DNA of 64,000 bases from Vulcanimicrobiota bacterium (GCA_963777315.1 CAVZQC010000004.1:192001-256000); one strand, 5' to 3'. Shown: positions 544 to 32,198, numbered from the stretch's first letter. Notes: generated by a model from the letters alone, not told the origin. Made by a program: numbers and translations.

Positions 544-589
544 ACCCCCTAAACACGGTAGAGCGTTCTCCAACTCTTCATGCTATGTT
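544..589 (+). promoter_or_regulatory. Degenerate island operator plus extended -10 upstream of the second LuxR gene
   Basis: ACCCCC-TAAACA-CGGTAG (544-561) lies 22 nt before TGc-TATGTT (584-589). The spacing matches the other operator sites but the sequence match is weaker. Confidence 0.4.
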
Positions 590-653
590 AACGACGTGCA
601 TCGGTAGATACCATCCTTGCACCTACGGGACGCACTACAGTTAGGATCGGTAT

Positions 654-1247
654 ATGCTCTGCTCATTGCCACGTTCCGCTTCCCAATCGGATCAAGCCTT
701 TACGAGCCTGTTGAATCAGCGTTCTCGACCCCACGTGCTGTTTTTTGACGAAGACGCGAATATCGCATTTGCCGACGCCGGCGCTTTAGCGCTGTTTCAG
801 GAACATTTCTGCTCCGTGGAGCACGAGGTGGCCGAAATGATTCGCAGCCGTGCGCAGAGCGATACGGCTTCGGAGCAATTGTTCGGTCCCATCGCTGGGC
901 GCATCTTGCGGATCGTTCCCCTCAATGGGCCGAACGGCACGCGTTTCTACGCGGCCTTTGTGGAGAACGAGGCACGCCGTGAAGATCTGAGCGACGCAGT
1001 GGCGCGGTTTTCTTTTACGCCCCGTGAAGTAGAGGTGTTGAACTGCATACTGAGCGGGATGAGCGCCGCAGAAATCGCTGAAGACCTGTGCATCGCGCAA
1101 GTGACCGTTTTCGATCATTTCAAGCACATCAGCCATAAGACGAAGGCGCGTAACCGTGCCGACATGCTGGCAAAGATTTTTAATTGGCAGCCCACCATCA
1201 AGAACAAGGATTTCGATGAATTCGGCGTGGACCGCAGGACGGTATGA
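654..1247 (+). CDS. LuxR-family regulator with an uncharacterised N-terminal (PAS-like?) domain
   Basis: FTPREVEVLNCILSGMSAAEIAEDLCIAQVTV...KTKARNRADML HTH. The stop overlaps the next start (ATGA). Confidence 0.92.
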   Translation: MLCSLPRSASQSDQAFTSLLNQRSRPHVLFFDEDANIAFADAGALALFQEHFCSVEHEVAEMIRSRAQSDTASEQLFGPIAGRILRIVPLNGPNGTRFYAAFVENEARREDLSDAVARFSFTPREVEVLNCILSGMSAAEIAEDLCIAQVTVFDHFKHISHKTKARNRADMLAKIFNWQPTIKNKDFDEFGVDRRTV

Positions 1248-2455
1248 GGGTCGCGTTCATCAATCACCACGGCGCCGTACCCGGCGGATCGGAGAGAAGC
1301 CTTGAGGTATACCTGCGTCGCGTGCCTCAGGGGATTGACCCGTTTGTGGTGTTGTTTGAGGACGGGGTGTATGCCGATCAGTTGCGGGCGCTGAATATTC
1401 CGGTGCACGTCGTACCGGCATCGCGGCGACTGATGTCTGTAACGCGCGCAGAGTTACACATCGGCGATGCGTTCGACGGAACGCGGCAGGTGCTTCTCGT
1501 GCGCAAATTGTTGAAGTCGCTCCACATCGACGTCGTCGTGACCAACACTATGAAAGCGCACGTCATCGGGGCCATTGCCGCTTGGTCGTGCAACGTCCGC
1601 GTCGTTTCTTGGTGGCACGATCTTCCGGAAGGACTATCACTCTGGATGCTTCGAGCCGTTAGCCGGCTATGCGCCGTGGAGCGGGTCGGCTGCTCGAGAG
1701 CAGTTGTACGGCGCTTTGCTTTGCCGCGTACGACAACGCTCGTCCCGCCGCTTGATCTTCGGCGCTTTGCCCAAGCTCCGCCGCGTGAGCATGCTAGAGC
1801 ATTGCTCGGTCTTCCGCAAGACAAACTGATTTTCTCGATTGTGGGCCGCATAGCCAGATGGAAAGGCCAAGATCGATTTCTACGCGCCGCGGCTCGCGTG
1901 TGCGCCGGCACGTCCAACGTGCATTTTGCGATCGTGGGTTCTGCGACATTTTCGCAAGATGGCGAGTTTACACCCGAGCTGGCAGAGCTTGCCGATAGGC
2001 TCGGTATTACGAATCGCGTTTCGTTCATACCGTGGCTTGACGATCCCAGGATTGCCTATGCTGCCAGCGATCTGATTTGCAATGCGTCGTCTGCCGAACC
2101 ATTTGGACGCACTTCCGCAGAAGCGGGCGCATGCGGCGTTCCGGCATTATGCTTCGACGACGGTGGCGCAAGTGAAGCAGTCTTATCGCCGGTCACGGGG
2201 ATGGCCGTTCCCGCCGGCAACATAGAAGCGTTTGCAGCGGCGATGATGGCCTACGCCGGCGATGCCGCCGCGTTGCGGCGCGCCGGCGCTGCAGCGCGTG
2301 TCTACGTCGAGCGCCACGATGCCGATCGGTTGGCAACGACCTTTTTTGAAGTCGTTGGCCGGGCGAGCCGCATGCCTCACCCAGCCCAGCCGCTAACCGT
2401 TCCGTCCGCTGCGCGAGTGGCGGAGGCACCTACACCCGTATCGGTAAAAGCGTAG
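1244..2455 (+). CDS. Glycosyltransferase family 4 (GT-B)
   Basis: N-terminal GGSERS, VGRIARWKGQD and the EPFGRTSAEA (E-x7-E) motif. Confidence 0.92.
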   Translation: MRVAFINHHGAVPGGSERSLEVYLRRVPQGIDPFVVLFEDGVYADQLRALNIPVHVVPASRRLMSVTRAELHIGDAFDGTRQVLLVRKLLKSLHIDVVVTNTMKAHVIGAIAAWSCNVRVVSWWHDLPEGLSLWMLRAVSRLCAVERVGCSRAVVRRFALPRTTTLVPPLDLRRFAQAPPREHARALLGLPQDKLIFSIVGRIARWKGQDRFLRAAARVCAGTSNVHFAIVGSATFSQDGEFTPELAELADRLGITNRVSFIPWLDDPRIAYAASDLICNASSAEPFGRTSAEAGACGVPALCFDDGGASEAVLSPVTGMAVPAGNIEAFAAAMMAYAGDAAALRRAGAAARVYVERHDADRLATTFFEVVGRASRMPHPAQPLTVPSAARVAEAPTPVSVKA

Positions 2456-2458
2456 AGT

Positions 2459-3839
2459 TTACGCGGGCACGCCGGCGTAGTCGATCCGCTGTGTTTTGGC
2501 GGCATCTGCTGCAACGGACACATTCCGGCGGGACAACCCGATGCCGACCGCTATCCAGAACAACGCTCCCTGTAGATTACCGTGAGAATCTAAGGAAAAG
2601 TCGAGAACGATCAGCATTGCCTGAAGTGCGAGAACGGCGGCCATGACGTCGCGTTGGGCATGGTCGCCGGCTTGCTTGGCTTTCCACCACGTTCCAAGCA
2701 CGAAGGCAAACGCCAAGAGCAGAGTGACAACATAGCCGGTAAAACCGGCGAAGCCCATTTCAGCCAAACGCGCCTGGAAGCCGCCGTCTATCGAGTACAC
2801 CTTTTCCGTGAAACTGGTCAGCTGCGACGCGGTTCCCGCTATGCCCAGGCCCTGGCCCGTCGGGTTGGCCACCGATTCCCCCAACAGTTCCGCCGTCGTT
2901 TCCCGGCGCGCGCTTACCGACCTGTCGGTGTCCAGATGTGAAAAGGTCTGCAACCGCAGCGCGATACTGTTTTGACCCGCTTGTATCGTCAGCCAAGGGG
3001 ATATGCACGCGAAGAACGTTGTTACGATAAGGCCGAACAGCACCAGTCGTGATGCCGTACGCCATGGCTTCCAGCTAAAGAGCAGATACACCACCATCGC
3101 AACCGCGAGCGCGACCCACGCGGACCGCACGAGCGTTAAAGAAAGTGCGATAACGCACGTGAAAACGGCTAGGAGCGGCCAGATGCGTCGTTCTTTCAAG
3201 CGATAAAGGTTGACCGCTATCGCGGCTGCCAGAAACGTGGCGCACGGTGTCGGTGAATTGAGGACGCTAAAGACGTGTATCGCAAAAGGACGAGCCAAGC
3301 CGTTCGTGATCATCCCGCTATTACGAGCAACGTGCTGCAACCAATAGACGTCCCATGGCGGCGGTGCCAGGAATTGATATATTCCGTAGACGCTCACTGC
3401 AGCGCCGACGACAAGCATGACGCAACCAAATCGATCGAATACGCTGACGGATGATTCGTTCCGGACGGAAAGCCAAAGAGCCAGGAATACCGGCGCCACG
3501 AACTGCAAAAAGTCGTAAAATGCCGGCTGCGCATTCCCTAGGAACCACGCAACCGTGCCTGCATATACAAAGTCTGCCGATCCAAGTCCAGGCTAGAAAT
3601 TGCACCCGGCGCGGTACGGCCCCGTAGCCGCGAAAGGTGACCGCGACGGCCAGGAAAAGAGCCCCGGCGAGCGGCACCAGGACCAGCAATTGAGATGCAT
3701 GGAAGGCGCTGTGCCAATCGACGAGCCGTCGAATCCCTGAATCAAAGACCCAAAAAACGAGTACGCCGACGCAATACCACCATATGAGACGGCTCACCGA
3801 ACTACCGTCGGGCGCGGCAAGCGTTGGTTTATGGTTCAC
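2459..3839 (-). pseudogene. O-antigen ligase/Wzy polymerase-like membrane protein, split by a +1 frameshift near 3575 (pseudogene or sequencing error)
   Basis: The N-terminal ORF 3321-3839 is hydrophobic up to FLAWTWIG. It continues as xFVYAGTVAWFLGNAQPAFYDFLQFVAP in the frame of ORF 2459-3508 if one base of GGCAGACTTT is removed. Wzy_C-like motifs: LTLVRSAW and NPTGQGLG...IDGGFQARLAEMG. Confidence 0.8.
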
Positions 3840-4469
3840 TTATCGCGACGAATGTTCCGTTGGCCGCGGGGGAAACGACGGCAGCGGTGGCTTGAGCGTT
3901 AGAGGCACCAGGTTTCGCGCCACGGTTTGTGCTGCGCCAGTCACCTGCACGCCTGCGCCGGTGGCCGGTCGCATCGCGATAACTCCGAGAAGGGTCGCCG
4001 ACACGCGCCGCAGCTGCGTCACGGTTTCTTCATCTTGCGGCGTGGCTTTGCGGCCCAATTGGACCGCGAGCAGTACCCCGCTGGCAAGCCGGCATAATTC
4101 TAATGACGTGCTATCGGCGGGTATCGGAGGGCACGCGACAATGAAGATCTCGTGCTCTGCTCGCACGTTTGCTACGAGCGAATTCAGCTCGCGTGTCGTG
4201 CCCGGCGCTTTAACGCACGTTCCTCCGAACGCGCGCAGCTCCACGTCGTCGGACACATCGCCCGGCTCACTGCCATACGAATCATCGCACAAGTTCAGGG
4301 CGGCGGTTGCGCGGCCGGCGGCCGCAAACGCGCGCGCCAGGCCGTATGCTAATTCGGCCTGGCGATCGCCGGCACACGCCGATGATACAACCATCATTGC
4401 CGAATTCGGTAGGCGTGCATCCAGCACGACCCGAAGCGATTGCAACGGCGAGTCGTTAGCATTAAGCAC
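3840..4469 (-). CDS. CpsD/CapB-like BY-kinase domain protein with degenerate Walker motifs
   Basis: A GTG start at 4469 follows a GGAG RBS. Fold landmarks MVVSSACAGDRQAELAYGLARAFA, IFIVACPP and GVLLAV...LLGVI. Lies directly after the co-polymerase gene. Confidence 0.75.
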   Translation of the reverse strand: MLNANDSPLQSLRVVLDARLPNSAMMVVSSACAGDRQAELAYGLARAFAAAGRATAALNLCDDSYGSEPGDVSDDVELRAFGGTCVKAPGTTRELNSLVANVRAEHEIFIVACPPIPADSTSLELCRLASGVLLAVQLGRKATPQDEETVTQLRRVSATLLGVIAMRPATGAGVQVTGAAQTVARNLVPLTLKPPLPSFPPRPTEHSSR

Positions 4470-4482
4470 GGTTAGTATCTCC

Positions 4483-5838
4483 TCATCCAATGACTCCCAG
4501 CACCGGAGAGCCATAAGCCTTTTCGATAGCCGCCGGCGTACGGAATCGACGATCGAGTCCTTCGAGTACAAAGGCAAGCGTTATCGCCACCCAAAGCGCA
4601 ACGACCATAATCGCGGCCATGATCAGCGCCGGCATGCTATAGGGAGAGCGCCCGGCATACGACGCGCGATCGAAGACCATCAAAGAACCTGTCGACGCAG
4701 CGGCGGCCCGATCCGCCAGCGTCGTTATGAGCCGGGTCGAGAGCAATTGATAGGCGTTTTCTGACGACGTCCGCTCCCGCCGTAAGGCGGCTACCGTCGT
4801 GCCCGTGACCGCCGAGCCTGTGAGCTGACTTTGCAGCTCCGTTATCGTGTTATTGATCTGTGCAAGCCTGGCGCGGTCGCTCGCCACCGCGGCATGGGCC
4901 CGGCTTTGTTCTGCCAGCGCAGCGGCATACGACTGCGTTGCAGAAAGCGACTCTTCTCCGATTCTCTTCTGGTCGCCGGAAAGCCCTAACTGCTCGTGGC
5001 CGATCATGCCTTGAAGTTGCACTCGGCCGGGATAGTCAGCCGTATATTGCGATTGTTCGCGGCGAAGTTGAGCCACGTCCCGACCGTACTGTTGACGCGT
5101 GCTGCTATAGACCGGATCCTCGCTGAGAAGCTGTTGGCGAGCCAGCGGAGCCATTTGGCTCGAGCGCAAGTCGGTGAGGCTCGTTTGCGATATCTCGCCG
5201 GATAATGTCGCCAGCAACTCATCCCGTTCGCTCTGCAAACGAACGAGCCGTGCATTTATCGATGTGTCGTCGCTGGCTCCGGAGCCGTCTTCGATGTACG
5301 GGTAGGCGGCGGTTAACCTTTGGAGCTGCGTGTCGATCTGCTTTAGCTCCTGCTGCCTACTCGCCAATTGCCGCTTCATATCGGCGCCCAGTGAATCAAA
5401 GCGGCTCGTGGCTATCTCGCGATAATACTGGACGACCTCTTCGGCAACCGCGTTTGCTCCTTTCACCGCCTGTTGCGGGGTGCGGCTGTCAAACGCAATC
5501 GTCATGACGTTTGAGTTCTGAAACACATCGACATGAATGCGTCGAAGTAGGGCTTCCGAGGAAATCGAGTGTCCCATGTCGCTTGAGACGCGATCCAGCA
5601 CCGTGTTCGTTTTTACCAGAAGCGGCAAGTCGTCGGACATCAACGGCTTAGCCATGGTGGTCGGAACGCCGGCTCCATCGTCGTTTGCGCCCGGCACCAT
5701 CAGCACGGAGGCGTTGGCGGTATAGGTGGCATGCCGCCGCAAGCCGCTGCCTAGGGCCAGCATAAGGCCCACGGCAAGCACGATCGCAACGCACAGGCGC
5801 TGGTTCCAAAGGGTCTCCAAGACCGATCTAACATCCAT
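4483..5838 (-). CDS. Polysaccharide co-polymerase (Wzz/GumC/Wzc N-terminal part)
   Basis: Two TM helices flank a long coiled-coil region. Ends LDRRFRTPAAIEKAYGSPVLGVI, typical of Wzc membrane modules. The ATG at 5838 has a GGAG RBS. Confidence 0.88.
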   Translation of the reverse strand: MDVRSVLETLWNQRLCVAIVLAVGLMLALGSGLRRHATYTANASVLMVPGANDDGAGVPTTMAKPLMSDDLPLLVKTNTVLDRVSSDMGHSISSEALLRRIHVDVFQNSNVMTIAFDSRTPQQAVKGANAVAEEVVQYYREIATSRFDSLGADMKRQLASRQQELKQIDTQLQRLTAAYPYIEDGSGASDDTSINARLVRLQSERDELLATLSGEISQTSLTDLRSSQMAPLARQQLLSEDPVYSSTRQQYGRDVAQLRREQSQYTADYPGRVQLQGMIGHEQLGLSGDQKRIGEESLSATQSYAAALAEQSRAHAAVASDRARLAQINNTITELQSQLTGSAVTGTTVAALRRERTSSENAYQLLSTRLITTLADRAAAASTGSLMVFDRASYAGRSPYSMPALIMAAIMVVALWVAITLAFVLEGLDRRFRTPAAIEKAYGSPVLGVIG

Positions 5839-5857
5839 AGAAAATCGCTCCACTGTG

Positions 5858-7009
5858 CTACACGCCCACTTCAACGGCGAGCGGAGAACTCTGAAGGTGC
5901 CCCGGAAACTCTAAGTGCTCCTCAGAACGCACGTAGGCGGCATACACGAGATTTTCAAATGCTTGCATAAAGCGAGCCTTGCTAAAGCGTTCCGCGTGAC
6001 GCCGAATAACGTGCGGCGAGAAGCTCATGCGTTCAAAGCCCTCGATCGCATCGGCAAACGCGTCGACGGTTTGTTCCGCCACCAGAATTCCGGTCGTCCG
6101 ATCGATGACCGTCTCGAGTGCGCCGCCCCGGCCGAACGCGATGACGGGCCGCCCGCAGGCATTGGCTTCAAGAATAGCCATCCCGAAATCCTCATGCTGG
6201 GGCGCAATCATCGCACGCGCGCCGCGCACGAGCTCTACCAGCCTCTGATCGGAAACGTGTCCCAGAAATTGCACGCATCCACCGTCCGGCGAATGGTCCT
6301 TTTTTTGACCTCCGACGACGATTAGCCGGCGCCCGAGTTTCCTTGCGGCTCCAACGGCAATATCGATGCGCTTGTACGGAACGGGCCGCGATGCAACCAG
6401 ATAGTAGTCGCCTGGGCGACCTTCAGGTTTAAATTTGTCCGTGTCGATCGGTGGATTGATAACCGTGCTCTCACGACCGTAGTGCTTAGCAATACGATTA
6501 CGCGTCTCGAAGCTGTTGGCAACGAAAGAGTCGACCCGCGAAGCGGTGATGTAATCCCATTGGCGCATGCGCGAGAGCAGCATGTCGGCCCCAAACCGCA
6601 TGGGTGCCGGCAACGCCCGCACATCGTCGTGCGTGCGTTCCCACAATGCGCGCATAGGCGTGTGACAATAGCAAATATGCGTCTGCCAGCCGCTTCGCAG
6701 CACGCCTTTGGCAGCGCAATGGTGAGAGGAGATGATGATGTCGTATGCGCTTATATCGAAGCTCTCGACGGCGGCGGGAAACAGCGGAAAGTACCATTTG
6801 TGATGCCGTTGAGCGCCGGGGAACGCGTTCAGAAACGACGGGCTTACCCGGGACTGGAGCGAACGTGGCCCGGACTGCGCAGAATAGAGCACCGAAAAAA
6901 TCGGCGCGTCCGGAAACAGCTCGGCAAGAGCCTCAACGACCCTCTCGGCGCCCCCGCGCTGCGTCATTGCGTCGGTAACTATAGCGATCCGCGGTCTGCT
7001 GTTTTTCAT
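5858..7009 (-). CDS. Glycosyltransferase family 4
   Basis: RGGAERV, YCHTPMR, SRPVPYKRID and EDFGMAILEANACGRPVIAFGRGGALE. Confidence 0.95.
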   Translation of the reverse strand: MKNSRPRIAIVTDAMTQRGGAERVVEALAELFPDAPIFSVLYSAQSGPRSLQSRVSPSFLNAFPGAQRHHKWYFPLFPAAVESFDISAYDIIISSHHCAAKGVLRSGWQTHICYCHTPMRALWERTHDDVRALPAPMRFGADMLLSRMRQWDYITASRVDSFVANSFETRNRIAKHYGRESTVINPPIDTDKFKPEGRPGDYYLVASRPVPYKRIDIAVGAARKLGRRLIVVGGQKKDHSPDGGCVQFLGHVSDQRLVELVRGARAMIAPQHEDFGMAILEANACGRPVIAFGRGGALETVIDRTTGILVAEQTVDAFADAIEGFERMSFSPHVIRRHAERFSKARFMQAFENLVYAAYVRSEEHLEFPGHLQSSPLAVEVGV

Positions 7010-7716
7010 CAGTACGCACCCCTGCCGTGAAGAACCACCGGCACGGTTTCAACGATGATCCGTAAATCGAGGCCAGGGGACCAACTATCGATGTAGCGAT
7101 TGTCCAGTCTGATCCATTCGTCAAATGCCACGTCCGAGCGTCCGGATATCTGCCAAAGACATGTAACGCCGGGTTTGACCGTCAACCGGCGAAACGCGGG
7201 CATATCGTAGTTGGCTACTTCGCTCGGCAAAGGCGGGCGCGGCCCGACCAGGGACATGTCCCCAATCATGACGTTCCATAGGTTTGGGATCTCGTCGATA
7301 CTATAGCGACGCAGAAAAGGGCCGATCGAGATCAGGCGCGGATCGCACTTTATCTTCAGAACCGGTCCGCTCACCTCGTTCAAACTGCGCATCTTTTCAT
7401 GGAGCAGGTGCGCACCGCGAACCATCGTTCGCAGCTTGTACATTCTAAAGATGCGGCCATCCTTACCGACACGCGGCTGTGAAAAGATCGGCGATCCTTT
7501 GGATACGAGCGCGATTGCGATGCCCGCGACGATGACCAGGGGTATGGTCACGATGATCAGCGCGAGGGCGAAAGTTGCGTCCATGACCCGTTTGTAGACG
7601 TGCCACATGGGGGGAACGACCGGGACGGCGACGCGCGACGGCAACAAGCCATAGATCAGGTGGTCCTGGCCGGCGTCCACCATGGGTACGATTGGGGGCT
7701 CATTTGCAATAAGCAT
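7009..7716 (-). CDS. Priming sugar-1-phosphate transferase (bacterial sugar transferase family)
   Basis: KRVMD, F(R)MYKLRTM, DPR, LRRYSIDEIPNLWNVMIGDMSLVGPRP and VKPGVTCLWQISGRSD. Confidence 0.95.
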   Translation of the reverse strand: MLIANEPPIVPMVDAGQDHLIYGLLPSRVAVPVVPPMWHVYKRVMDATFALALIIVTIPLVIVAGIAIALVSKGSPIFSQPRVGKDGRIFRMYKLRTMVRGAHLLHEKMRSLNEVSGPVLKIKCDPRLISIGPFLRRYSIDEIPNLWNVMIGDMSLVGPRPPLPSEVANYDMPAFRRLTVKPGVTCLWQISGRSDVAFDEWIRLDNRYIDSWSPGLDLRIIVETVPVVLHGRGAY

Positions 7717-7841
7717 TGCGCTAGCGCAGCCGCATCATCGCGCCAAATCCTTGCTTCCGGCGCAGTAGCGGGCTGCGAACGCATCGAGATTTTGCAAAAA
7801 GACTCATTTCAAAATCGTAGCTGATGTGCACTCGTTCGTAC

Positions 7842-7887
7842 ATCGTAGCATCGGCTTTCGTTGAGAATCATCCCTAGCAGGCGGGAT
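7842..7887 (-). promoter_or_regulatory. Island operator plus extended -10 for the leftward EPS operon
   Basis: ATCCCT-AGCAGG-CGGGAT (7870-7887). Minus-strand TGc-TACGAT at 7842-7847, gap 22 nt. Confidence 0.7.
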
Positions 7888-7931
7888 TTATCCGCCTGGT
7901 TTTGGCAGGGCTCTCTCCGGATGCGACGCCG

Positions 7932-7976
7932 ACCCCTAACGTTAGGGATGGGATGCCGCCGCCACCACGGTAGAAT
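7932..7976 (+). promoter_or_regulatory. Island operator plus -10 for the rightward GT operon
   Basis: ACCCCT-AACGTT-AGGGAT (7932-7949, containing the perfect palindrome CCCTAACGTTAGGG). TAGAAT at 7971-7976, gap 21 nt. Confidence 0.72.
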
Positions 7977-7985
7977 AGAAAGCGC

Positions 7986-9194
7986 ATGGGACCGCAATTG
8001 CGAGAAGTATTGCCGGTGACTGCACTATGTGCGCCGCCGGCCGGCGAAGCCACGCTTCTTTCGACGCTGCAAATTGGGCTCGTATGGTTTCCCGACGGTA
8101 TCGGAGGCGGCTCCAGCCGCTTTTTTTCAGAGATTACCGATCATTTGGTGGCCCAGAACGTCATGGTGCACGGCATCGTGGCCGGCAAAAGCTCCATAAC
8201 GACGCCGAGGCGCGATGGTATCCGGATCTTTTCCGCCTACGATGCACCGCTCATCGAACGCCTGCGCGCGGCGCGCGCAGCCGTACGAGAAACTCTTGCG
8301 ACATACCCTGTAAATGTCGTGGCATCGCACTTTGCGCTCTTCACCGCCCCATGTTTGGACGCTATCAACGATTTGCCCATGGTGCTGCATTTTCATGGGC
8401 CGTGGGCGGCAGAATCGCGCATAGAAGGCGCATCGCGATTCGCGACGTTGAGTCAATTCTTCGTTGAAAAGTTGGTGTATTCGCGTGCGCGAATCGCAAT
8501 CGTGCTCTCGGCTGCCTTTCGGGACGTGCTGCATCGCAGCTACGGCGTGCCGCTGGAAAACATCCGTGTAATTCCCGGTGGAGTCGACGTCGAACGATTC
8601 AATTTATCATGTTCGCGTGACGAGGCGCGATTGCGCCTGGGGTTGTCGTTGAGTCGCCCGCTCGTGGTAGTCGTCAGGCGCCTTGCCGAACGCATGGGCT
8701 TGGAAAATCTCATCGCCGGTTTCGCAGGCGTTAAGAAGGAACATCGCGACGTTGTCTTGGCGATCGTCGGCAATGGTCCCCTCGCCGATAGGCTCAAGCG
8801 TCAAGTGCGCGGGAGCGATCTCGCCGATTCCGTTGTGTTCGCCGGCAGAGTATCGGAAGAAGATTTACCGCTGTACTACCGTGCTGCGGATGTTTCCGTC
8901 GTGCCGAGCATAGCGCTCGAGGGTTTCGGCTTAGTGGTGGCTGAATCGCTGGCATGCGGCACACCGGCGATTGTAACGCCGGTCGGCGGCCTGCCTGAAG
9001 CCGTTTCCGGACTCTCAAATGCCCTCATTCTCGAAAACAGCGGCTGCGCAGCAATTACGTCCGGCCTTCGCGCGGCTCTGGCCGGTAGGCTGCAGCTCCC
9101 GGCCTCGGCAGAGTGCGCATCGTATGCGAGAGAACGTTTCAGCTGGCCGATCATCGCCAAACAGGTAAAGCGCGTTTACGGTGAGGTCGCGTGA
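7986..9194 (+). CDS. Glycosyltransferase family 4
   Basis: HFHGPWAAES, VIPGGVD, VRRLAERMGLENL and EGFGLVVAESLACGTP. Confidence 0.95.
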   Translation: MGPQLREVLPVTALCAPPAGEATLLSTLQIGLVWFPDGIGGGSSRFFSEITDHLVAQNVMVHGIVAGKSSITTPRRDGIRIFSAYDAPLIERLRAARAAVRETLATYPVNVVASHFALFTAPCLDAINDLPMVLHFHGPWAAESRIEGASRFATLSQFFVEKLVYSRARIAIVLSAAFRDVLHRSYGVPLENIRVIPGGVDVERFNLSCSRDEARLRLGLSLSRPLVVVVRRLAERMGLENLIAGFAGVKKEHRDVVLAIVGNGPLADRLKRQVRGSDLADSVVFAGRVSEEDLPLYYRAADVSVVPSIALEGFGLVVAESLACGTPAIVTPVGGLPEAVSGLSNALILENSGCAAITSGLRAALAGRLQLPASAECASYARERFSWPIIAKQVKRVYGEVA

Positions 9195-10117: not shown

Positions 10118-10156
10118 TACGCCGGGATTGCGTTTCGTTCGTCCCGGGCGCACGAT
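10111..10156 (+). promoter_or_regulatory. Island operator plus -10 in front of a small gene (probably leaderless)
   Basis: ATCCTA-GTACGC-CGGGAT (10111-10128). CACGAT at 10151-10156, gap 22 nt. The ATG follows 6 nt later. Confidence 0.55.
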
Positions 10157-10162
10157 GCTCGC

Positions 10163-10477
10163 ATGACGTATGGGCCATCTGGGGCGGCTCTGCCTTCCTT
10201 ACGCACCGGAGGCAGTGTATTTTTGTTGGACGGAAACGGCCGCGTGTTCGCCTGCCCACAAGACGCCTGTGCCCAAGAGTACCCCAAGTTGCCTTTCGGA
10301 TTGCAGAGTCTGGTGGATCGACTCATCGTGCAGTCGCGTGACATCTTTACAGCGGGTGAAGCCGACTTTACCATCGATTTTCCGCTCGCCGTTCGTATTT
10401 TTTCACTAGAACCCAAGTCCAGCCCCACTATCGCCCTATACGTTCAGAGCGCGCGCCGCCGTTCCGACAATCCGTGA
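10163..10477 (+). CDS. Small protein resembling the N-terminal domain of the island LuxR regulators, without an HTH
   Basis: VFLLDGNGRV...KLPFGLQSLVDRL...LAVRIFSL...IALYVQ aligns by eye with LVVLDYDYRI...RLPTSVEAAVRAL...LMVRTSVL...IAASLE of ORF 31581. Confidence 0.6.
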   Translation: MTYGPSGAALPSLRTGGSVFLLDGNGRVFACPQDACAQEYPKLPFGLQSLVDRLIVQSRDIFTAGEADFTIDFPLAVRIFSLEPKSSPTIALYVQSARRRSDNP

Positions 10478-25108: not shown

Positions 25109-25154
25109 ATCCCTATCTCTTGGGATGGACCGCCGGGTACAGGCTCGGTAAGCT
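25109..25154 (+). promoter_or_regulatory. Island operator plus -10 for the NRPS-P450-GNAT operon
   Basis: ATCCCT-ATCTCT-TGGGAT (25109-25126). TAAGCT at 25149-25154, gap 22 nt. Confidence 0.72.
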
Positions 25155-25295
25155 CAAGCCGTACGGACGTTCGGGCGTAACACGCATCTGGTCGATGGCA
25201 CGTATGTGCTCCTACCGGCTGCCGCTTCCTACGAACGAGTTCTCGTATTGCTGCCGTCGTCGTTTACGGCAGCCGGCTACAGTAAAGGGTGGAAT

Positions 25296-27125
25296 GTGGG
25301 CACGTTCGTTTTGCAAGGCAAACGATTGCCGGAGCAAAATATCTTCAAAATCGAAAACCGCTCGAATGCGGTTTCTCGTAGAATTTCGCGGTGCGCTGCG
25401 GGAGCGCCCGAACGTATTGCAGTCGCCGACGGAACCGCGCAGCTCACCTATCGTGAGCTCGAGCGCCGCTCCGACTACTTGGCCGCGCGCCTTCAAGAAG
25501 CGGGCGCGGCGCCGAATCGCTGCGTCGGAGTCTATGTAGAACGCTCGGCAGATTTTATCGTCGCCGCACTCGCCGTGCTAAAAAGCGGCGCTGCCTATGT
25601 TCCGCTCGACCTTTCCACGCCCCCAGAACGAGCGGCATTCATTTTAGAGGACGCCGGCGCTTTCGCGCTTATCACCCAGCCGGGCACGCCGAGTCCGGCT
25701 TCAGGCCGGCGGCATGTGATCGAGATGGACGATTGGAGCGCGACATCTCGCAGCGCCTTTGCAAAGGTTGAGCTCGACGCCGCAAACTTAGCGTACGTTA
25801 TCTACACATCGGGCTCGACGGGCAAACCCAAAGGCGTTGAGATAACCCATGGCAATCTTTCGAATTTGGTGAATTGGCATCAGTCCGAATTCCGCGTCAC
25901 GTCGTCAGACCGCGCGAGCCAGGTCGCGGGCCTTGGGTTCGATGCGTCGGTTTGGGAGATCTGGCCCTACCTGACGGCCGGTGCGAGCGTGTGCGTCGCG
26001 GACGAATTGACCCGCCGCTCGCCCGAGGCACTTCGTGACTGGATGGTCGCGGAGAAGATCACGATCGGTTTCGTGCCGACGATTGTAGCCGAGCAGCTGC
26101 TCCACATTGACTGGCCCGACGAGACGAGCCTTAGCATTCTGCTGACCGGGGGCGATACGTTGCACGCTCGCCCGGCACCAAAGTCGCCGTTCCGCGTGGT
26201 AAACAATTATGGCCCAACGGAATGCACGGTGGTGGCAACGTCAGGCGCCGTGTCTTCGCACGGCGACGATGGCGCACCGCCGTCCATCGGCCGTCCCATC
26301 GCCAATGCGACGGCGCTGATCCTTGACGAAGCATTGCGTCCGGTCGCGGCAGGCGAAGTGGGAGAACTGTGCATCGGCGGCGCGCTCGTTGGCCGGGGAT
26401 ATCGTAATCTGCCCGAACTGACGGCAAGCCGATTTGTGGACTATCTATCTGCGTCCGCGGATCCGCTGCGCATCTATCGAACCGGCGACCGCGCGCGATT
26501 GCTGCAAAACGGAGAAATCGAATTCCTCGGTCGTCTCGACGATCAGGTGAAGATTCGCGGGCACCGCATTGAGTTAGGAGAAATTGCCGCGCACCTGGAT
26601 CGTTGTCCCGGAATCGAATGGAGCGCCGTTTCGGTGAAGGATCTCGGCGCTCGAGGGCTTTCGCTTGTCGCTTACATCGTTTTAGTCGACAAGGCAACCC
26701 TTGCCGCCGCCGGCGTACGCCAATTTCTTGCAACCTATCTCCCGGATTACATGGTGCCCGAGTTTTTCGTGGTAATGTCGGAGCTGCCTGTGACGGCGAG
26801 CGGAAAGCTGGATAGATCTGCTCTTCCGGAGCCCTGCGTGGATAATCTCTTGCCGTATGATCTCGCGGCCGACGGTACGGCTAATGCGGGCGGCAGTGAA
26901 CTGCAATGCCAGATAGCGGCATTGGTCGCAACACTGTTGCGCCGGCCGGCGATTGACGTCGACGAAAATTTCTTCATGATAGGTGGCCATTCGATGCTCG
27001 GCGTGCAACTGATCGCCCAAATTCGCGATAAGTTCGGCGTCAAAGTCACGCTGCGGCAGCTGTTCACCGCACCGACGATCGCCGCCTTGTCGCAGGAAGT
27101 TGCAAGGCTGAAACAGCCGGCGTAA
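25296..27125 (+). CDS. Stand-alone NRPS adenylation-PCP didomain, predicted to activate leucine
   Basis: Core motifs LTYREL, AYVIYTSGSTGKPKG, FDASVWE, NNYGPTE, GELCIGG, YRTGD, GRLDDQVKIRGHRIELGEI and SGKLDR. PCP motif FFMIGGHS. No C or TE domain. Start uncertain (ORF open from 25206; GTG 25296 follows an RBS-like AAGGGTGGA). Confidence 0.95.
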   Translation: MGTFVLQGKRLPEQNIFKIENRSNAVSRRISRCAAGAPERIAVADGTAQLTYRELERRSDYLAARLQEAGAAPNRCVGVYVERSADFIVAALAVLKSGAAYVPLDLSTPPERAAFILEDAGAFALITQPGTPSPASGRRHVIEMDDWSATSRSAFAKVELDAANLAYVIYTSGSTGKPKGVEITHGNLSNLVNWHQSEFRVTSSDRASQVAGLGFDASVWEIWPYLTAGASVCVADELTRRSPEALRDWMVAEKITIGFVPTIVAEQLLHIDWPDETSLSILLTGGDTLHARPAPKSPFRVVNNYGPTECTVVATSGAVSSHGDDGAPPSIGRPIANATALILDEALRPVAAGEVGELCIGGALVGRGYRNLPELTASRFVDYLSASADPLRIYRTGDRARLLQNGEIEFLGRLDDQVKIRGHRIELGEIAAHLDRCPGIEWSAVSVKDLGARGLSLVAYIVLVDKATLAAAGVRQFLATYLPDYMVPEFFVVMSELPVTASGKLDRSALPEPCVDNLLPYDLAADGTANAGGSELQCQIAALVATLLRRPAIDVDENFFMIGGHSMLGVQLIAQIRDKFGVKVTLRQLFTAPTIAALSQEVARLKQPA

Positions 27126-27138
27126 TGCAATCGTACCG

Positions 27139-28377
27139 ATGATCGATAGCGCGGCTCAAGTCCCCTTAAGTCTCTACCACTTACTCGATCCGCAGGTGCT
27201 GGCGAACCCGTATCCGCTCTATCGCCGCCTTCGTACCGAAGATCCCGTTCATTGGGATCCCTACCTCCATGCTTGGATCGTCACGCGATATCAGGACGTC
27301 ATTACGGTCCTGACTCGGTTTTCCGCCGATCGCACGCCTTCCCCGGAATATTTCGAGCGGCTGGGTGCCCCCGAAGTGAGCCCGATAGCGACGGTGATGG
27401 TCAAGCAGATGCTGTTTATGGATGCGCCGGCACACACGCGCCTGCGCACGCTTGCGGCGCCCGCCTTCATGCCGGCGCGCGTACACGTGCTGCGCGATCA
27501 CGTCCGGCAGATCGCGAGCAATCTCATCGACGACATCGTGGCACGCGGCTCCGGCAAAATGGACCTTTTGGCCGACTTCGCCGAGCCGTTTCCCGCGATC
27601 GTGACGGCCGAGTTGCTGGGCGTGCCCGTGGAAGATCACGTCCGGCTGAAAGACTGGTCGGGGACGTTCGCCGGAATGCTTGGAAACTTTCAGCACAATC
27701 CCGAACGGCTCGGGGACGTGCTGCAGGCTGCCCAAAACTTGACCGCATACTTTCAAAACGCGATCCTCGAACAACGCAAGAACCCAAGGCCGGGATTGGT
27801 CGACTCGCTGATGACCAGCGAAGTCGACGGCGATCGCCTGACCGACGAAGAGGTCGTTGCAAACTGCATCGTCACGATGGTCGGCGGCCAGGAAACGACG
27901 ACGAATCTGATCGGCAACGGCATGCTCACGCTGTTGCGTAATCCGCAAGCCTTGGCGCGCCTTCGCAGCGAGAACGAGATCGTGCCCGCGGCGGTCGAAG
28001 AACTGCTGCGCTATGAAAGCCCCAGCCAGCACACCGCCCGTTTAGCGCCGCGTGACGTAGTGCTCGGCGGAAAGCAGATTCGCAAAAGGGACGCGGTGAT
28101 CGCGGTGATGGCCGCGGGCAACCGCGATCCGGAGCGATTCCCGCAGCCCGACCGCCTCGACTTCGATCGATCGGACAATCGACACCTCGCGTTCGGATGG
28201 GCGGCACATTTCTGTTTCGGCGCGCCGTTGGCTCGGCTCGAGGGACATATTGCGTTTGAAACGCTCTTGCAGCGATTTCCGGTGCTGCGGCTCACAAACG
28301 AGAACCTTGCGTGGCGTGAAAACCTCGGACTGCGCGGTCTGAGATCGCTGCCGCTTTCGTACGAAGCCAAGCCATGA
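27139..28377 (+). CDS. Cytochrome P450
   Basis: DAPAHTRLR, I-helix VGGQETT, the EELLR (ExxR) motif and heme motif HLAFGWAAHFCFG. Confidence 0.97.
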   Translation: MIDSAAQVPLSLYHLLDPQVLANPYPLYRRLRTEDPVHWDPYLHAWIVTRYQDVITVLTRFSADRTPSPEYFERLGAPEVSPIATVMVKQMLFMDAPAHTRLRTLAAPAFMPARVHVLRDHVRQIASNLIDDIVARGSGKMDLLADFAEPFPAIVTAELLGVPVEDHVRLKDWSGTFAGMLGNFQHNPERLGDVLQAAQNLTAYFQNAILEQRKNPRPGLVDSLMTSEVDGDRLTDEEVVANCIVTMVGGQETTTNLIGNGMLTLLRNPQALARLRSENEIVPAAVEELLRYESPSQHTARLAPRDVVLGGKQIRKRDAVIAVMAAGNRDPERFPQPDRLDFDRSDNRHLAFGWAAHFCFGAPLARLEGHIAFETLLQRFPVLRLTNENLAWRENLGLRGLRSLPLSYEAKP

Positions 28378-29519
28378 GCTTTCAGGTCAAAAATATGCCG
28401 CCGGCCGGGGCTGCGGCTCTTGCGCCGCCCAAGCTTCGGCCGGCCCGTTTCGACGATTACGAAGGCATCCGCAGGTTGGTCTTGGAGCACTCTACCGAAT
28501 TCGCGGCCGCCGAAGACTGGCGCCATTACTGGGCCGACAATCCCGTCTACCAACGTCTCGGCAGTGGGACGCCCATCGGCTGGGTGTTGCACACGCAAGC
28601 CGGCGGCATCGTCGGCACGCTCGGCAGCATCCCGTCACTGTATACGTTCCGCGGTCAGGACCTGATCGCGGCGACGGGGCAGTCGTGGTATGTCGCGGCT
28701 CCATACCGTGGGCTGGCGCTCGAGCTGATGGCCGAGTATTTCGATCAGCCCGTCGATTTGTTTATCGGCTCCACGGCGGGTTCGATGGCGAGTGCGACGT
28801 GCAGCGAGCTCTATGCGCGGATCCCATTGGGTCAGTGGGACACGAAGTCATATTGCGTAACGCGATATCGCTCGTTTGCCGCGCGAGCGCTGGACAAGCT
28901 GCACGTGCCGCTCGCGGGTTTACTCTCGCATCCCGCGGGTGCCGGACTTTGGCTCAAGGATGCTATCCGCAGGAAACCGGTCTGTGCCGTCCCACGTTCC
29001 TTCGCCATCGACGCCATGGATCGGTTCGACGCGCGTTTCGATGATTTCTGGGGTGAGCTCGTGCGGCAAAATCCGGAGAAATTGCTTGCAGAGCGGTCTC
29101 TTGCGGCGCTTGCGTGGCATTTTGGCCCAGCCATTCGCAATGGTCTGTTATGGATTTTTACCGCATCGAAAAATAAACGGATGCGAGGTTACTGCATCGT
29201 GCGGCGGCGAGAATATTCGACGCCCGGGGTTCGGCGCATGCGCCTAGTGGATTATCAGAGCATCGAACCGGAAGTGGACCTTTTACCGTGCCTGCTTGAT
29301 GCGGCGGTGCGGCGCTGCACCGCAGAAGATATTTATGTCCTAGAAAACATCGGCGTGGGCATGCCCAAAATGCGCGCTTTTGACGACTATGCCCCGTACC
29401 GCGTACGGTCGGATAGCTGGCCCTTCTTTTACCGCGCGGCCGATCCGGCGCTCCACGCAGAGCTGCTTCAGCCCCGTTTTTGGGACCCGTCGTCCTTCGA
29501 TGGTGATGCGAGTTTGTGA
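28374..29519 (+). CDS. Uncharacterised protein with a probable tandem GNAT fold, paralog A
   Basis: LRPARFDDYEGI at the start and WYVAAPYRGLA (motif A-like). Translationally coupled to the P450 (ATGA). Confidence 0.6.
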   Translation: MSFQVKNMPPAGAAALAPPKLRPARFDDYEGIRRLVLEHSTEFAAAEDWRHYWADNPVYQRLGSGTPIGWVLHTQAGGIVGTLGSIPSLYTFRGQDLIAATGQSWYVAAPYRGLALELMAEYFDQPVDLFIGSTAGSMASATCSELYARIPLGQWDTKSYCVTRYRSFAARALDKLHVPLAGLLSHPAGAGLWLKDAIRRKPVCAVPRSFAIDAMDRFDARFDDFWGELVRQNPEKLLAERSLAALAWHFGPAIRNGLLWIFTASKNKRMRGYCIVRRREYSTPGVRRMRLVDYQSIEPEVDLLPCLLDAAVRRCTAEDIYVLENIGVGMPKMRAFDDYAPYRVRSDSWPFFYRAADPALHAELLQPRFWDPSSFDGDASL

Positions 29520-30712
29520 ACCAATTCACAGGCACGACGCCGGATATCGGAATAGGATCGGCCCAGCCGCAAGCACATCGCGCTGCTAGCCTTCGGCCCG
29601 CGACTCTGGACGATTACGAAGACATTCGGCAACTGGGCTTAAGCTATTCTTTGGACGTTCCATCGGTGGAGGACTGGCGAAGTCTTTGGCGCGACAATCC
29701 GCTGCGGAACCGCTCGGGAAACGATTTCCCGATCGGCTGGGTGCTTGAAACGCAGGCCGGTGAGATGGTCGGCACGATGGGGACGGTTCGATCGCTGTAC
29801 AAATTTCGCGGGGACGATCTCATATCGGCAGCTTCACGAGCGTGGTTCGTAAAAGCTCCCTACCGCGGATTTGCTCTGCGGCTGATGGACGAGTATTTAA
29901 ATCAACCCGGGGTTGACCTATTCATCAACAACGCCGTCAGCGTTCCGGCGCTTGAGTCGTTCAGCCAATTCTGCGAACGGATACCGCTGGGTGAATGGGA
30001 CAGCATGTCCTATGGGGTGACCGGCCATCGCGCGTTTGCGCAAAAAGCTTTGGAGAGGGCGCGCGTCCCCGTCAGCGGATCGCTGGCGTATCCCGTGGGC
30101 GCCGCGCTGTGTTTGAAAGATGCTGCCCGCAATACGCCGCTTCCCAAGAGCGCTCGTGCGTTTACCATCGAAGTCACGGACCGTTTCGATTCCCGGTTTG
30201 ACGCGTTTTGGAACGAATTGCTTGCGCAAAAGCCGGAAAAGCTCTTGGCCGAAAGAAGCAGCCGCGCCCTTTCGTGGCATTTCGGTGCACCGATGCGCAG
30301 AGGGAATCTGTGGGTTCTTACGGCGTCCAAAAACGACCGCCTGCGCGCGTATTGCACCTTGACGGCACAAGATCACGCGTTCAGGCTTCCGGCTCTGCCC
30401 CATGGTGATACGCAAGGCATCAGCGCTATGCGTTTGGTCGACTACCAAAGCATCGAACCGGAAGCAGATGCGCTGCCGGCGCTGCTCGCGGCGGCACTTG
30501 CGCGATGTGCCCAGGAAGGCTTTTGCATCCTTGAAAATCTCGGATGCGGCGTGCCGAAGATGCGCGCTCTTGACGACCGGCTTCCCTACCGCAAAACGCT
30601 TTCGAACTGGAAATTTTTTTACCGGGCAGCCGATGCGCGCCTCGACGCCGAACTACGTGAGCCCAGGTTCTGGGATCCGTCCGCGTACGACGGGGATGCG
30701 AGTTTCGAATAA
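29516..30712 (+). CDS. Uncharacterised protein with a probable tandem GNAT fold, paralog B
   Basis: LRPATLDDYEDI and WFVKAPYRGFA. Collinear with paralog A through FWDPSxYDGDAS. Coupled by a GTGA overlap. Confidence 0.6.
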   Translation: MNQFTGTTPDIGIGSAQPQAHRAASLRPATLDDYEDIRQLGLSYSLDVPSVEDWRSLWRDNPLRNRSGNDFPIGWVLETQAGEMVGTMGTVRSLYKFRGDDLISAASRAWFVKAPYRGFALRLMDEYLNQPGVDLFINNAVSVPALESFSQFCERIPLGEWDSMSYGVTGHRAFAQKALERARVPVSGSLAYPVGAALCLKDAARNTPLPKSARAFTIEVTDRFDSRFDAFWNELLAQKPEKLLAERSSRALSWHFGAPMRRGNLWVLTASKNDRLRAYCTLTAQDHAFRLPALPHGDTQGISAMRLVDYQSIEPEADALPALLAAALARCAQEGFCILENLGCGVPKMRALDDRLPYRKTLSNWKFFYRAADARLDAELREPRFWDPSAYDGDASFE

Positions 30713-31429
30713 CGTGCCGGCGCTCAGCCACTGAACGGGCAGTGAACCCGGGGCGTGTTGGGAGCGGATGGCCGTGGCGGCGATATGGTCTTTTGATGGA
30801 TGATGCAGCGTAAAATGCCAGCCGTCGATGGATGCCGGCTCACCATTTCCATCGAGCCCGATGGTGAATCGCTCCTCCCCGCTGCCCAGTCCGCGACCCA
30901 TGCCTTTAAGGCACGCTTCCTTCAACACCCACAGTTTGAAGAATCGCACGTTGCGCTCAGGCTGAGGTAAAACCGTCAGGCTCGCGCGCTCCGGCTCGGA
31001 AAGAAAATTGCGAGCGATAAGGTCGATATCTGCGGTGCGTGAGATCTTCTCGACGTCCACGCCAACCTCGCCCGCGCGGCTCAATAGGCAAACCACCATA
31101 CCTTCCGTATGCGCTATATTGAACTGCAGAGACTTGAAAGCTGAAGGTTCGGCGATCTGCGGTTTGCCGAACTCGTTTTCAGCGAAACGCCATTCGGCCG
31201 GATCTACCGCGGCGTACTCTGAGAGAGACAATCGGCCTAACGCGCGGCCGGTGAGATACCTATGCCGCAGCTCCGGCGCGCGTAATGCTGCGTAATGCGA
31301 TTGCTCTGTTTTTGAAAGCCAGGACGAACAGTGTTCGTGCAGCGCAGGCGGGGAGATGTGATCCGGGTTAACATGCCATGCATGCGCATCCAGCAGCAAC
31401 TTGTCCAAATATAAGCGCTTGGCCGGCAT
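30653..31429 (-). CDS. Sfp-type 4'-phosphopantetheinyl transferase
   Basis: FGKP, LQFNIAHTEG, VGVDVE and FFKLWVLKEACLKGMGRGL. Confidence 0.93.
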   Translation of the reverse strand: MPAKRLYLDKLLLDAHAWHVNPDHISPPALHEHCSSWLSKTEQSHYAALRAPELRHRYLTGRALGRLSLSEYAAVDPAEWRFAENEFGKPQIAEPSAFKSLQFNIAHTEGMVVCLLSRAGEVGVDVEKISRTADIDLIARNFLSEPERASLTVLPQPERNVRFFKLWVLKEACLKGMGRGLGSGEERFTIGLDGNGEPASIDGWHFTLHHPSKDHIAATAIRSQHAPGSLPVQWLSAGTLFETRIPVVRGRIPEPGLT

Positions 31430-31580
31430 ATGGCTAGGTTCGCCGTCCGAGGGCTCACGTCTTTAGCAGCGCTGGGTAGCCTCGACGAGCTCCCGCTTGC
31501 CCGCTTTCTTGTTCATCCATCGGACGTGCAAGCCCTTTGTAAGGAGCATGTAACGCGGGTGTGCTAGCCTCGGCTGAACG

Positions 31581-32165
31581 ATGGCTGGTGCATCCGAACC
31601 GAGAAAAACCGGTGCTTCGGTGGAGCGCCACGCTGCGGTGTTGCACGAGCGGGGTGCGCCTTGCTTGGTGGTGCTGGATTATGACTACCGCATTATTACT
31701 GCCGAACCTCGCCTAGACGTCGTTTTGGGCGAGGTCGGGCTGACCGAGCGCGCCCTGGACCGGCTTCCCACGTCGGTAGAGGCGGCAGTACGGGCATTGA
31801 CTGCGTCAATCATCGACGGTAGCGATCCTGTAGATGCCGCAACGCCGGTACCGGGCTTAATGGTACGTACTAGCGTCCTTACCGGACCTACCGGTATGTG
31901 CATCGCCGCGTCGCTCGAGCGCCTTCGCACGCGCGATCCGCTGAACGGAGCGGCCGCGCGCTTTCGCCTGAGCCCGCGCGAAGTTGAAGTGCTCGAGCTT
32001 ATTTTGCACGGCCTCGAGGCTCGCGACATTGCCGCGCGCCTGCATATCGCCGAATCCACCGTCGGCGAATACTATAAACATCTCTATCTGAAAATCGGCG
32101 TGCGAAGCCGTGCGGCGCTTGTTGCGCGGATCTTCGATTACCGGGAAAATACATCCCGAGCGTAA
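31581..32165 (+). CDS. LuxR-family regulator with the same N-terminal domain
   Basis: LSPREVEVLELILHGLEARDIAARLHIAESTV...KIGVRSRAAL. TGc-TAGCCT -10-like element at 31565. Confidence 0.92.
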   Translation: MAGASEPRKTGASVERHAAVLHERGAPCLVVLDYDYRIITAEPRLDVVLGEVGLTERALDRLPTSVEAAVRALTASIIDGSDPVDAATPVPGLMVRTSVLTGPTGMCIAASLERLRTRDPLNGAAARFRLSPREVEVLELILHGLEARDIAARLHIAESTVGEYYKHLYLKIGVRSRAALVARIFDYRENTSRA

Positions 32166-32198
32166 GGTATAGGCAGCACGGCATATTCGCGGTAGCTT
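32153..32198 (+). promoter_or_regulatory. Island operator plus -10 before the HTH-less small gene
   Basis: ATCCCG-AGCGTA-AGGTAT (32153-32170). TAGCTT at 32193-32198, gap 22 nt. The ATG at 32206 follows 7 nt later. Confidence 0.58.

Follow-up and report, generated by a model that had tools for sequence, protein, structure and literature searches.

Across the promoters of a polysaccharide island in an Eremiobacterota genome, we found an 18-bp palindrome of 7-4-7 layout (two seven-base halves around four variable bases) at a near-constant distance from a -10-like hexamer, and this palindrome occurs in two sequence classes that co-occur with two different LuxR-type regulators. The window analysed is a stretch of 64,000 nucleotides (G000:C4:192001-256000) of the genome G000 (2.83 Mb, 89.9% complete). 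Its first part (1-32.6 kb) holds three genes with a GerE-type helix-turn-helix (HTH), namely luxR1, luxR2 and luxR3, together with Wzx/Wzy polysaccharide genes, the UDP-glucose dehydrogenase gene ugd, three glycoside-hydrolase-like genes, and an adenylation-thiolation (A-T) nonribosomal peptide synthetase (NRPS) with a cytochrome P450 and a phosphopantetheinyl transferase (PPTase). Taken jointly, we hold it reasonably probable that the palindrome is a two-class activator operator, that LuxR3 and LuxR2 form a cascade on it, and that short PAS-only relatives of these regulators act as brakes. Dimers of the PAS-LuxR proteins of the island would bind the palindrome abutting the -35 region. LuxR2 would read the GGGAT class and turn on the polysaccharide, ugd, hydrolase-like and NRPS genes, LuxR3 would read the GGTA class and activate luxR2, and each activator would induce a PAS-only relative, so that inactive mixed dimers would provide negative feedback. 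Binding, activation over repression, the order from LuxR3 to LuxR2 and the start sites are the steps that we infer.

The original prediction had described eight copies of ATCCCT-N6-AGGGAT, each followed toward a gene by a -10-like hexamer, as a single operator linking the whole island. All eight sequences are present where they had been located, and every hexamer lies on the gene-facing side at the spacing that had been given (Table 1). With the -10 hexamer taken to start at -12, six sites are centred at -43.5 and the other two at -42.5 and -44.5, which shifts the proposed -42/-43 slightly upstream in most cases. The -35 hexamer at 17-nt spacing starts on the last T of the site and matches TTGACA poorly (TGATTC, TGGACC, TTCTGC, TTGCGT, TAGGCA), and poor -35 hexamers are the expectation for activator-dependent promoters. 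TAnnnT is found upstream of 12/46 tRNA genes versus 8.8% at random, some with TTGAC-like -35 elements, which indicates that ordinary sigma-70 promoters exist in G000. The sites therefore consist of a dyad at a conserved distance from a sigma-70-type -10, as expected of a LuxR/NarL-type operator. A fixed distance between site and promoter is needed for contact with RNA polymerase and not for a blocker, so the near-fixed 22 nt, as well as the weak -35 hexamers, argue against repression by a protein that occludes polymerase at the -35 region. The last base of the site does overlap the predicted -35 hexamer, and CerM is a LuxR-type repressor (PMC11655674); nevertheless, repression appears hardly probable.

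Table 1 Features of the island. Column Score denotes bits on the main matrix. Column -10 denotes the -10-like hexamer with its distance from the site. Column Relatives denotes genomes with an orthologous site or shared layout.
Feature	Coordinates	Strand	Faces or contains	Score	-10	Relatives
luxR1, 3' part	1..444	+	PAS-like domain and LuxR HTH, helix TTVIGYVKKL; frame opens at G000:C4:191818			
Degenerate GGTA-class operator	544..561	+	Faces luxR2	-3	TATGTT, 584-589 (22 nt)	
luxR2	654..1247	+	PAS-like domain and LuxR HTH, helix VTVFDHFKHI; Pfam GerE			
Wzx/Wzy-type polysaccharide genes	1244..17464	.	GT4 (four), GT2, wzy-like, chain-length protein, priming sugar transferase, flippase, GNAT, UDP-glucose dehydrogenase (Pfam and NCBIfam)			
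GGGAT-class operator	7870..7887	-	Faces leftward run of wcaJ-like, GT4, chain-length and wzy genes	19.0	TACGAT, 7842-7847 (22 nt)	G001, G060, G181, G315, G402
GGGAT-class operator	7932..7949	+	Faces GT4 (7986) and GT2	20.9	TAGAAT, 7971-7976 (21 nt), then ATG after 9 nt	G001, G060, G181, G224, G315, G402
GGGAT-class operator, weaker form (site 10111)	10110..10128	+	Faces PAS-only gene 1, and probably also wzx and the genes after it	10.4	CACGAT, 10151-10156 (22 nt), ATG 6 nt on	G001, G060, G181, G315, G402; one base longer, ACCCTM-N6-YGGGAT, in 4/5, shorter spacing in G181
PAS-only gene 1 (104 aa)	10163..10477	+	N-terminal domain of the regulators without HTH; predicted leaderless			
GGGAT-class operator	17294..17311	-	Faces UDP-glucose dehydrogenase gene	20.8	TACAAT, 17265-17270 (23 nt; 22 in G001, G181)	G001, G181, G224
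Three paralogous glycoside-hydrolase-like genes	18091..24153	-	Operator at gene 1 only			
GGGAT-class operator	19563..19580	-	Faces glycoside-hydrolase-like gene 1	20.8	TACAAT, 19535-19540 (22 nt)	G001, G181
GGGAT-class operator	25109..25126	+	Faces NRPS (A-T), P450 and two uncharacterised genes	23.3	TAAGCT, 25149-25154 (22 nt)	G001, G060, G181, G224, G315
A-T didomain NRPS, cytochrome P450, two paralogous uncharacterised proteins, opposite-strand PPTase	25206..31429	.	Pfam, NCBIfam			
luxR3	31581..32165	+	PAS-like domain and LuxR HTH, helix STVGEYYKHL			
GGTA-class (mixed) operator	32153..32170	+	Within last codons of luxR3, faces PAS-only gene 2		TAGCTT, 32193-32198 (22 nt), ATG 7 nt on	G001, G181, G278
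PAS-only gene 2 (118 aa)	32206..32562	+	N-terminal domain of the regulators without HTH; predicted leaderless			

In order to assess enrichment, we searched the complete G000 sequence. With at most one mismatch, ATCCCT-N6-AGGGAT occurs at 6 places, 5 of them within window 7870-25109, and 15 other spacer lengths (0-15) give 0-3 places each. A matrix trained on 15 sites from G060, G181, G224 and G402 was also applied to G000; since the training sites were found via the earlier consensus, this test is independent in genome and not in motif. At 14 bits or more it returned 11 matches; 6 lie in the island, each with TAnnnT at 21-23 nt. With the threshold lowered to 10 bits, TAnnnT stands at that distance in 6/8 island matches versus 0/36 outside, the two island matches lacking it being 10111 (CACGAT) and 19074, both of 10-14 bits. 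The background frequency of TAnnnT is 2.3% in contig C4, 3.6% in the island and 7.4% in intergenic DNA of the island, and at the last value the chance of six out of six is about 2e-7. Matrices of other spacer lengths gave 0-1 island matches (spacers 1-3 and 5-9) versus 6 for spacer 4. The motif is thus concentrated in the island and not equally common elsewhere, as the genome-wide check suggested with the original prediction required. A chance origin was rejected on island concentration, -10 geometry and half-site conservation, and a genome-wide regulon was rejected as no outside site in G000 has a -10.

The rearranged island is also found in G001, G181, G224, G060, G315 and G402 (the last viewed over 10 kb on each side only), and the sites precede the same genes there. 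We compared 14 orthologous promoter pairs (versus G060, G181, G224 and G402). The left half is identical at 77/84 bases (92%) and the right half at 83/84 (99%), position 7 is kept in 11/14 and position 12 in 13/14, and the values fall to 24/56 (43%) for the middle four bases and 98/280 (35%) for the 20 bases upstream. Because the halves and positions 7 and 12 are conserved and the middle four are variable, the consensus becomes ATCCCTA-N4-TAGGGAT; the palindrome first proposed is retained in sequence and refined from 6-6-6 to 7-4-7. Five bases 3' of the site are conserved as well (54/70), and they coincide with the -35 hexamer position at 17-nt spacing. Among orthologues the distance from site to TAnnnT has its mode at 22. 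A spacing of 21-23 nt is too long for a -35/-10 spacer, and the distal half is also conserved, and for these reasons GGGAT was rejected as a -35 element read by an alternative sigma factor.

A scan of the phylum for the site plus its -10 gave matches in 28/401 genomes and 8 hits for the backward control pattern, tallies that take in G262, on which alone no conclusion depends. Each of the 6 island genomes included in the draw has matches within its island (4, 4, 5, 2, 2 and 1 hits), and G216, where luxR2 is present and the full island absent, gives no match. At 20 loci around non-island matches (17/22 non-island genomes), a gene of the regulator family lies nearby only in G176 and at one G236 locus; many of the other matches at these loci appear to lie within reading frames. 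Across two families, the site accompanies the LuxR2 clade and the island.

The window sites separate into two classes. Six belong to the GGGAT class; in the other two, 544 and 32153, the half adjoining the -10 is of GGTA type. The latter two had been taken as copies of the one operator; they belong to another class, and 544 as a copy of the main motif was rejected on its matrix score (Table 1). The G181 luxR2 promoter, orthologous to 544, reads ATACCGT-agtc-ACGGTAG and has the same TATGTT at 22 nt; ACGGTAG is retained at the corresponding place in G000. Three ATACCG/CGGTAT-type sites of the same geometry are found at a luxR3-like locus in G007. Two further LuxR3 orthologues were examined (G278 and G306, 55-58% identity). 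As an out-of-sample result, G278, which has luxR3 and no luxR2 in the locus, has its luxR3 preceded by a perfect ATACCG-N6-CGGTAT; another GGTA site stands at the end of luxR3, in front of a PAS-only gene. In G306 the only site has 3 mismatches; its CGGTAT half is intact and lies 23 nt from TATAAT.

Under a strict rule applied to 11 loci, with one G181 site counted in both directions, the GGGAT class is present in 7/8 loci with LuxR2 and 0/3 without, and the GGTA class in 5/6 loci with LuxR3 or a LuxR3-like gene and 0/5 without. The claim of one regulon under one operator is therefore not supported as it was worded, and what may be kept of it is that LuxR-HTH proteins of the island would activate the exopolysaccharide, ugd, glycoside-hydrolase-like and NRPS genes. 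From this co-occurrence, LuxR3 would in G000 act on luxR2 and PAS-only gene 2, and LuxR2 on the six GGGAT promoters. In G224, G216, G060 and G402, where luxR3 is not in the island, ATCCC...GGGG forms lie upstream of luxR2, which suggests LuxR2 autoregulation. A single relaxed regulon, in which LuxR2, LuxR3 (and LuxR1) as homo- or heterodimers would share one degenerate operator, would account for site 32153, which joins an ATCCCG half with a GGTAT half in G000, G001 and G181, and for the 7-4-7 layout and 22-nt spacing common to both classes and the 33-36% identity of the proteins. It is at odds with the lack of GGTA sites in the five LuxR2-only loci and of GGGAT sites in the three LuxR3-only loci, and with recognition helices that differ consistently between the regulator clades, and we consider it unlikely.

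PF00196 (GerE) is above cut-off in LuxR1, LuxR2 and LuxR3. LuxR2 is the only family regulator in all 7 island loci; its orthologues are 55-90% identical and form an 8-row clade (support 100/100) with the helix VTVFDHF(K/T)HI. LuxR1 occurs in this position only in G000 and G001. The N-terminal domain of the three proteins spans about 100 residues, about 85 of them PAS-like, and has no Pfam family; in its alignment, weak PAS_8 matches appear in 4/53 rows. In the LuxR2 model (predicted local distance difference test, pLDDT, 83.7), residues 21-105 match the PAS chains 4ew7 (Z 8.7, root-mean-square deviation (rmsd) 2.7, 84 aligned), 3a0v (8.1, 2.5, 78) and 7jl6 (8.0, 2.8, 85), and residues 112-177 match GerE/NarL HTHs. 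This model predicts a PAS fold for the N-terminal domain that LuxR1-3 share. No autoinducer-binding domain was detected: Pfam gives only GerE at E 1e-5, and in the N-domain alignment no member matches at E 0.1. Nor was a receiver domain, with none in Pfam and NCBIfam matches that cover the HTH region far under cut-off. Sequence comparison of the N-domain with solved structures yielded nothing informative, an Atlas search gave unnamed clusters at 0.93, and word-indexed protein searches returned only 2 and 3 proteins. The likeness to lux boxes that had been proposed consequently extends to position and not to a reader of the N-acyl-homoserine-lactone (AHL) type.

With a profile of the N-domain we obtained 387 representatives at E 0.001 or better. 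Among the 150 best family proteins (149 new and P0005), 111 have an HTH, 34 are short without an HTH (about 5 resemble cut-off N-halves) and 5 are long without an HTH (2 resemble chance matches). G000 has 6 members, 5 of them in the island; the sixth (G000:C1:235336-235950) has the helix STAIFHVKQL. Long members (P0028, P0029, P0052, P0054; loci L100-L121), of about 300-430 aa, carry an extra N-terminal domain, without Pfam match, before the PAS-like domain. For LuxR1-like and long (about 340 aa) members, a search of 23 loci with both consensus forms revealed no operator except at the G224 LuxR2 locus and one G166 site without a -10, and inspection by eye revealed none.

We also considered that the sites are bound by the product of a gene outside the island, such as a NarL-type response regulator, and that the local LuxR genes are targets or bystanders. 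As 7 of the 10 GerE-type matches in G000 lie outside the island, candidates exist; a G060 site precedes a response-regulator-like gene, and the tail-to-tail 7-4-7 layout is that of the response regulator SsrB (excerpt of PMC2837388). Such a regulator sits poorly with the 0/36 outside sites having a -10 in G000 and with a site that follows the island and members of the LuxR2 clade through two families, which makes it very unlikely.

Two of the sites, 10111 and 32153, overlap the final codons of the preceding genes (ends 10117 and 32165) and face short HTH-less paralogues of the regulators, which had been missed when exopolysaccharide and NRPS genes were proposed as targets. By sequence, both PAS-only genes are homologues of the N-terminal domain of the regulators. 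PAS-only 1 matches them by profile (P 97.2%, E 4.7e-11), and this link required profiles, as BLASTP of PAS-only 1 versus LuxR3 gave no match; its model (pLDDT 70.6) matches PAS chains at a middling level (Z 6.2-6.8), and the gene occurs in 6/7 island loci. PAS-only 2 is 37% identical to LuxR3 over 95 aa (E 1e-7) and 23% to LuxR2 (E 0.13), and it lies beside luxR3 or a luxR3-like gene in G001, G181, G007 and G278. Intact short HTH-less homologues of the N-terminal domain are thus found in several genomes, as in TrlR/CerN-type pairs. For the PAS-only genes, the first ATG after the -10 is in frame and 6-8 nt away in 7/10 cases; G060 and G315 have an out-of-frame ATG at 3 nt ahead of the in-frame one at 7 nt, and the G278 gene is not leaderless. 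This start distance is typical of leaderless transcripts, which we predict for the genes with ATGs 6-7 nt past the -10, and in-frame ATGs just past the hexamers support the -10 calls. HTH-less or degenerate-HTH partners lie beside family regulators in G002, G007, G016, G051, G176, G226, G230, G233 and G323; an operator-like site precedes them in G007, G016, G176 and G323, and none was seen in the other five. G001 has a third PAS-only gene (L002:16162-16486), which is divergent from luxR1 and has a GGTA-class site next to its start; no such gene was found in G000.

When the LuxR2 N-domain was modelled together with PAS-only 1, the predicted complex scored 0.58 versus 0.08 for the best control, a weak value: the benchmark mark is reached by 116/157 solved and 2/215 mismatched pairs, and scores past the mark up to 0.60 hold only 18 solved pairs plus both mismatches. 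At least 60% of contacts are shared between runs, with a partner pLDDT of at least 67. By analogy with TrlR and CerN, the PAS-only proteins may be dominant-negative brakes, a role to which we give slightly less than an even chance. They might instead be co-activators or independent ligand sensors giving positive feedback, with operators and activators unchanged, for which RcsA with RcsB is a loose parallel. In G323, G016 and G176 an operator-like site does precede a partner with a degenerate HTH, and PAS-only 1 shares only about 20% identity with LuxR2 and has invariant residues of its own. A partner without HTH cannot touch a half-site, yet both halves are conserved, and inhibition is the role described for TrlR and CerN, the characterised LuxR paralogues that lack the HTH (PMC13043044, PMC11655674). 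Positive feedback of this kind seems quite unlikely.

Several observations weigh against the two-class cascade with brakes. The orthologous sites of GT4c and ugd in G224 and of the NRPS in G181 have no TAnnnT at 21-23 nt, and the GGGAT-type site of G060 outside the island stands before a different, response-regulator-like gene. Since G000/G001 and G060/G315 are kin, fewer than 11 independent events underlie the cross-table; the scanned regions are of unequal length (3.5-39 kb), and the GGTA consensus was itself taken from G181 and G007. G216 (LuxR2) and G306 (LuxR3) have no strict site, only 3-mismatch or longer-spacer forms. Because 544 is degenerate in G000 and 32153 mixes both half-site types, heterodimers or cross-binding are possible. 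LuxR1 has no place in the scheme, G224 carries the island without PAS-only gene 1, and the weak complex score may arise between homologous domains through a homodimer-like surface. The operator also covers several promoters rather than the whole island, since luxR1, luxR3, the PPTase gene, two of the three glycoside-hydrolase-like genes and the 24263 methyltransferase gene have no site of their own.

The closest known systems are compared here from excerpts of the cited papers. Streptomyces PAS-LuxR regulators (PimM, PteF, FscRI; PMC9774167) are likewise cluster-situated proteins with an N-terminal PAS domain and a C-terminal LuxR HTH, and their palindrome, also in the -35 region, has a GGGA core in the half-site. 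Their 16-bp site CTVGGGAWWTCCCBAG has GGGA first, whereas the halves are reversed here and span 18 bp; their targets are mostly polyketide clusters, and no PAS-only partner of the kind present here was seen in those excerpts (PMC9774167). PimM is compared by description, and no NCBIfam model passes its cut-off for LuxR1-3. SsrB of Salmonella pathogenicity island 2 has a LuxR-type HTH and an 18-bp degenerate palindrome with 7-4-7 tail-to-tail layout, repeated across promoters of one island and conserved in the orthologous island, but it is a two-component response regulator, and the proteins here have a PAS-like instead of a receiver domain (PMC2837388). TraR/TrlR and CerM/CerN also pair a full-length LuxR-type protein with an HTH-less paralogue (PMC13043044, PMC11655674), and the 31% identity of CerM/CerN is near the 37% of LuxR3/PAS-only 2 (PMC11655674). 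Those pairs bind AHL (PMC13043044, PMC11655674), whereas the shared domain here is PAS-like; here, unlike in them, the partner genes lie directly behind operators of the system, two modules are stacked, and the brake role is putative. The lux box of LuxR is a 20-bp inverted repeat centred at -42.5, versus -42.5 to -44.5 here, and differs in length and sequence from our 18-bp 7-4-7 sites (PMC3376562). VqmA (phage VqmA-DPO complex, PDB 7dwm) shares PAS plus LuxR-HTH with the LuxR2 model (Z 9.9, 147 residues, rmsd 14.1), with 17% identity and a different domain arrangement. Overall, the system would resemble a cluster-situated PimM-type activator at -35 on an SsrB-style 7-4-7 site with a TrlR/CerN-like partner. 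A search by title and start of abstract, with supplements outside its scope, found no published account of the site or of an Eremiobacterota LuxR regulon.

The island is flanked by rpoB (just left of the window) and rpoC (window 44406). Partial matches give a rough distance between the two of about 45 kb for G000; the corresponding figures are about 59 kb (G001), 70 kb (G181), 28 kb (G024) and 3 kb (G006), and the two genes are unlinked in G005. In G306, luxR3 lies inside the rpoB-rpoC gap without a polysaccharide island, which suggests entry of the LuxR2 island into a LuxR3 locus. The glycoside-hydrolase-like genes have no Pfam, NCBIfam or PDB sequence match; Atlas features of one place it at 0.96 to GH5/GH39/GH42 clusters (clan GH-A). 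All three proteins have N-terminal signal-like segments, and the third has a long Thr/Pro-rich linker. The NRPS-P450 segment is linked to the polysaccharide genes in all 6 fully seen islands, and its two paralogous proteins match no family. We take the A-T and P450 pair to resemble carrier-bound amino-acid hydroxylation (NovH/NovI type), and its product may decorate the polysaccharide. The open reading frame 13152-14384 stops at 14384, while DNA similarity to its G060/G224 homologues seems to extend toward 14485-14560, so that a frameshift or assembly error is possible. A methyltransferase (about 17465-18150) appears split across frames, and window 50428-64000 holds a [NiFe]-hydrogenase cluster, a nickel transporter, Hyp proteins and DUF5947 and DUF6084 genes. 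The GGGAT-type site that G060 has outside its island (L028:10641, G060:C3) is followed by TATAAG at 22 nt; the LuxR gene behind it is response-regulator-like and runs divergently from another member of the family. Similar response-regulator genes precede partner-regulator pairs in G226, G230, G233 and G002.

Control of a polysaccharide cluster by a LuxR-type activator at about -43 follows a familiar logic. For a mostly uncultured soil phylum, the analysis yields a concrete operator, candidate activators, a promoter geometry and a list of targets. Two paralogues with different recognition helices and half-sites that differ at two positions (ATCCCT versus ATACCG) also offer a natural test of LuxR-HTH specificity. 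More tentatively, and as a joint reading that we regard as doubtful, Eremiobacterota may have an undescribed family of compact PAS-LuxR activator/brake modules, two of which would be stacked here as a self-limiting cascade. Each activator, acting at its own 7-4-7 operator, would induce a leaderless PAS-only paralogue that sequesters it; LuxR3/PAS-only 2 followed by LuxR2/PAS-only 1 would give a pulse of modified exopolysaccharide, triggered perhaps by a small molecule from the co-regulated NRPS-P450 genes. If the PAS-only proteins inhibit, truncated-paralogue antagonism of AHL receptors would extend to PAS-LuxR proteins, and, with 34 of the 150 best representatives short and HTH-less, it would be a recurring feedback part wired by operators.

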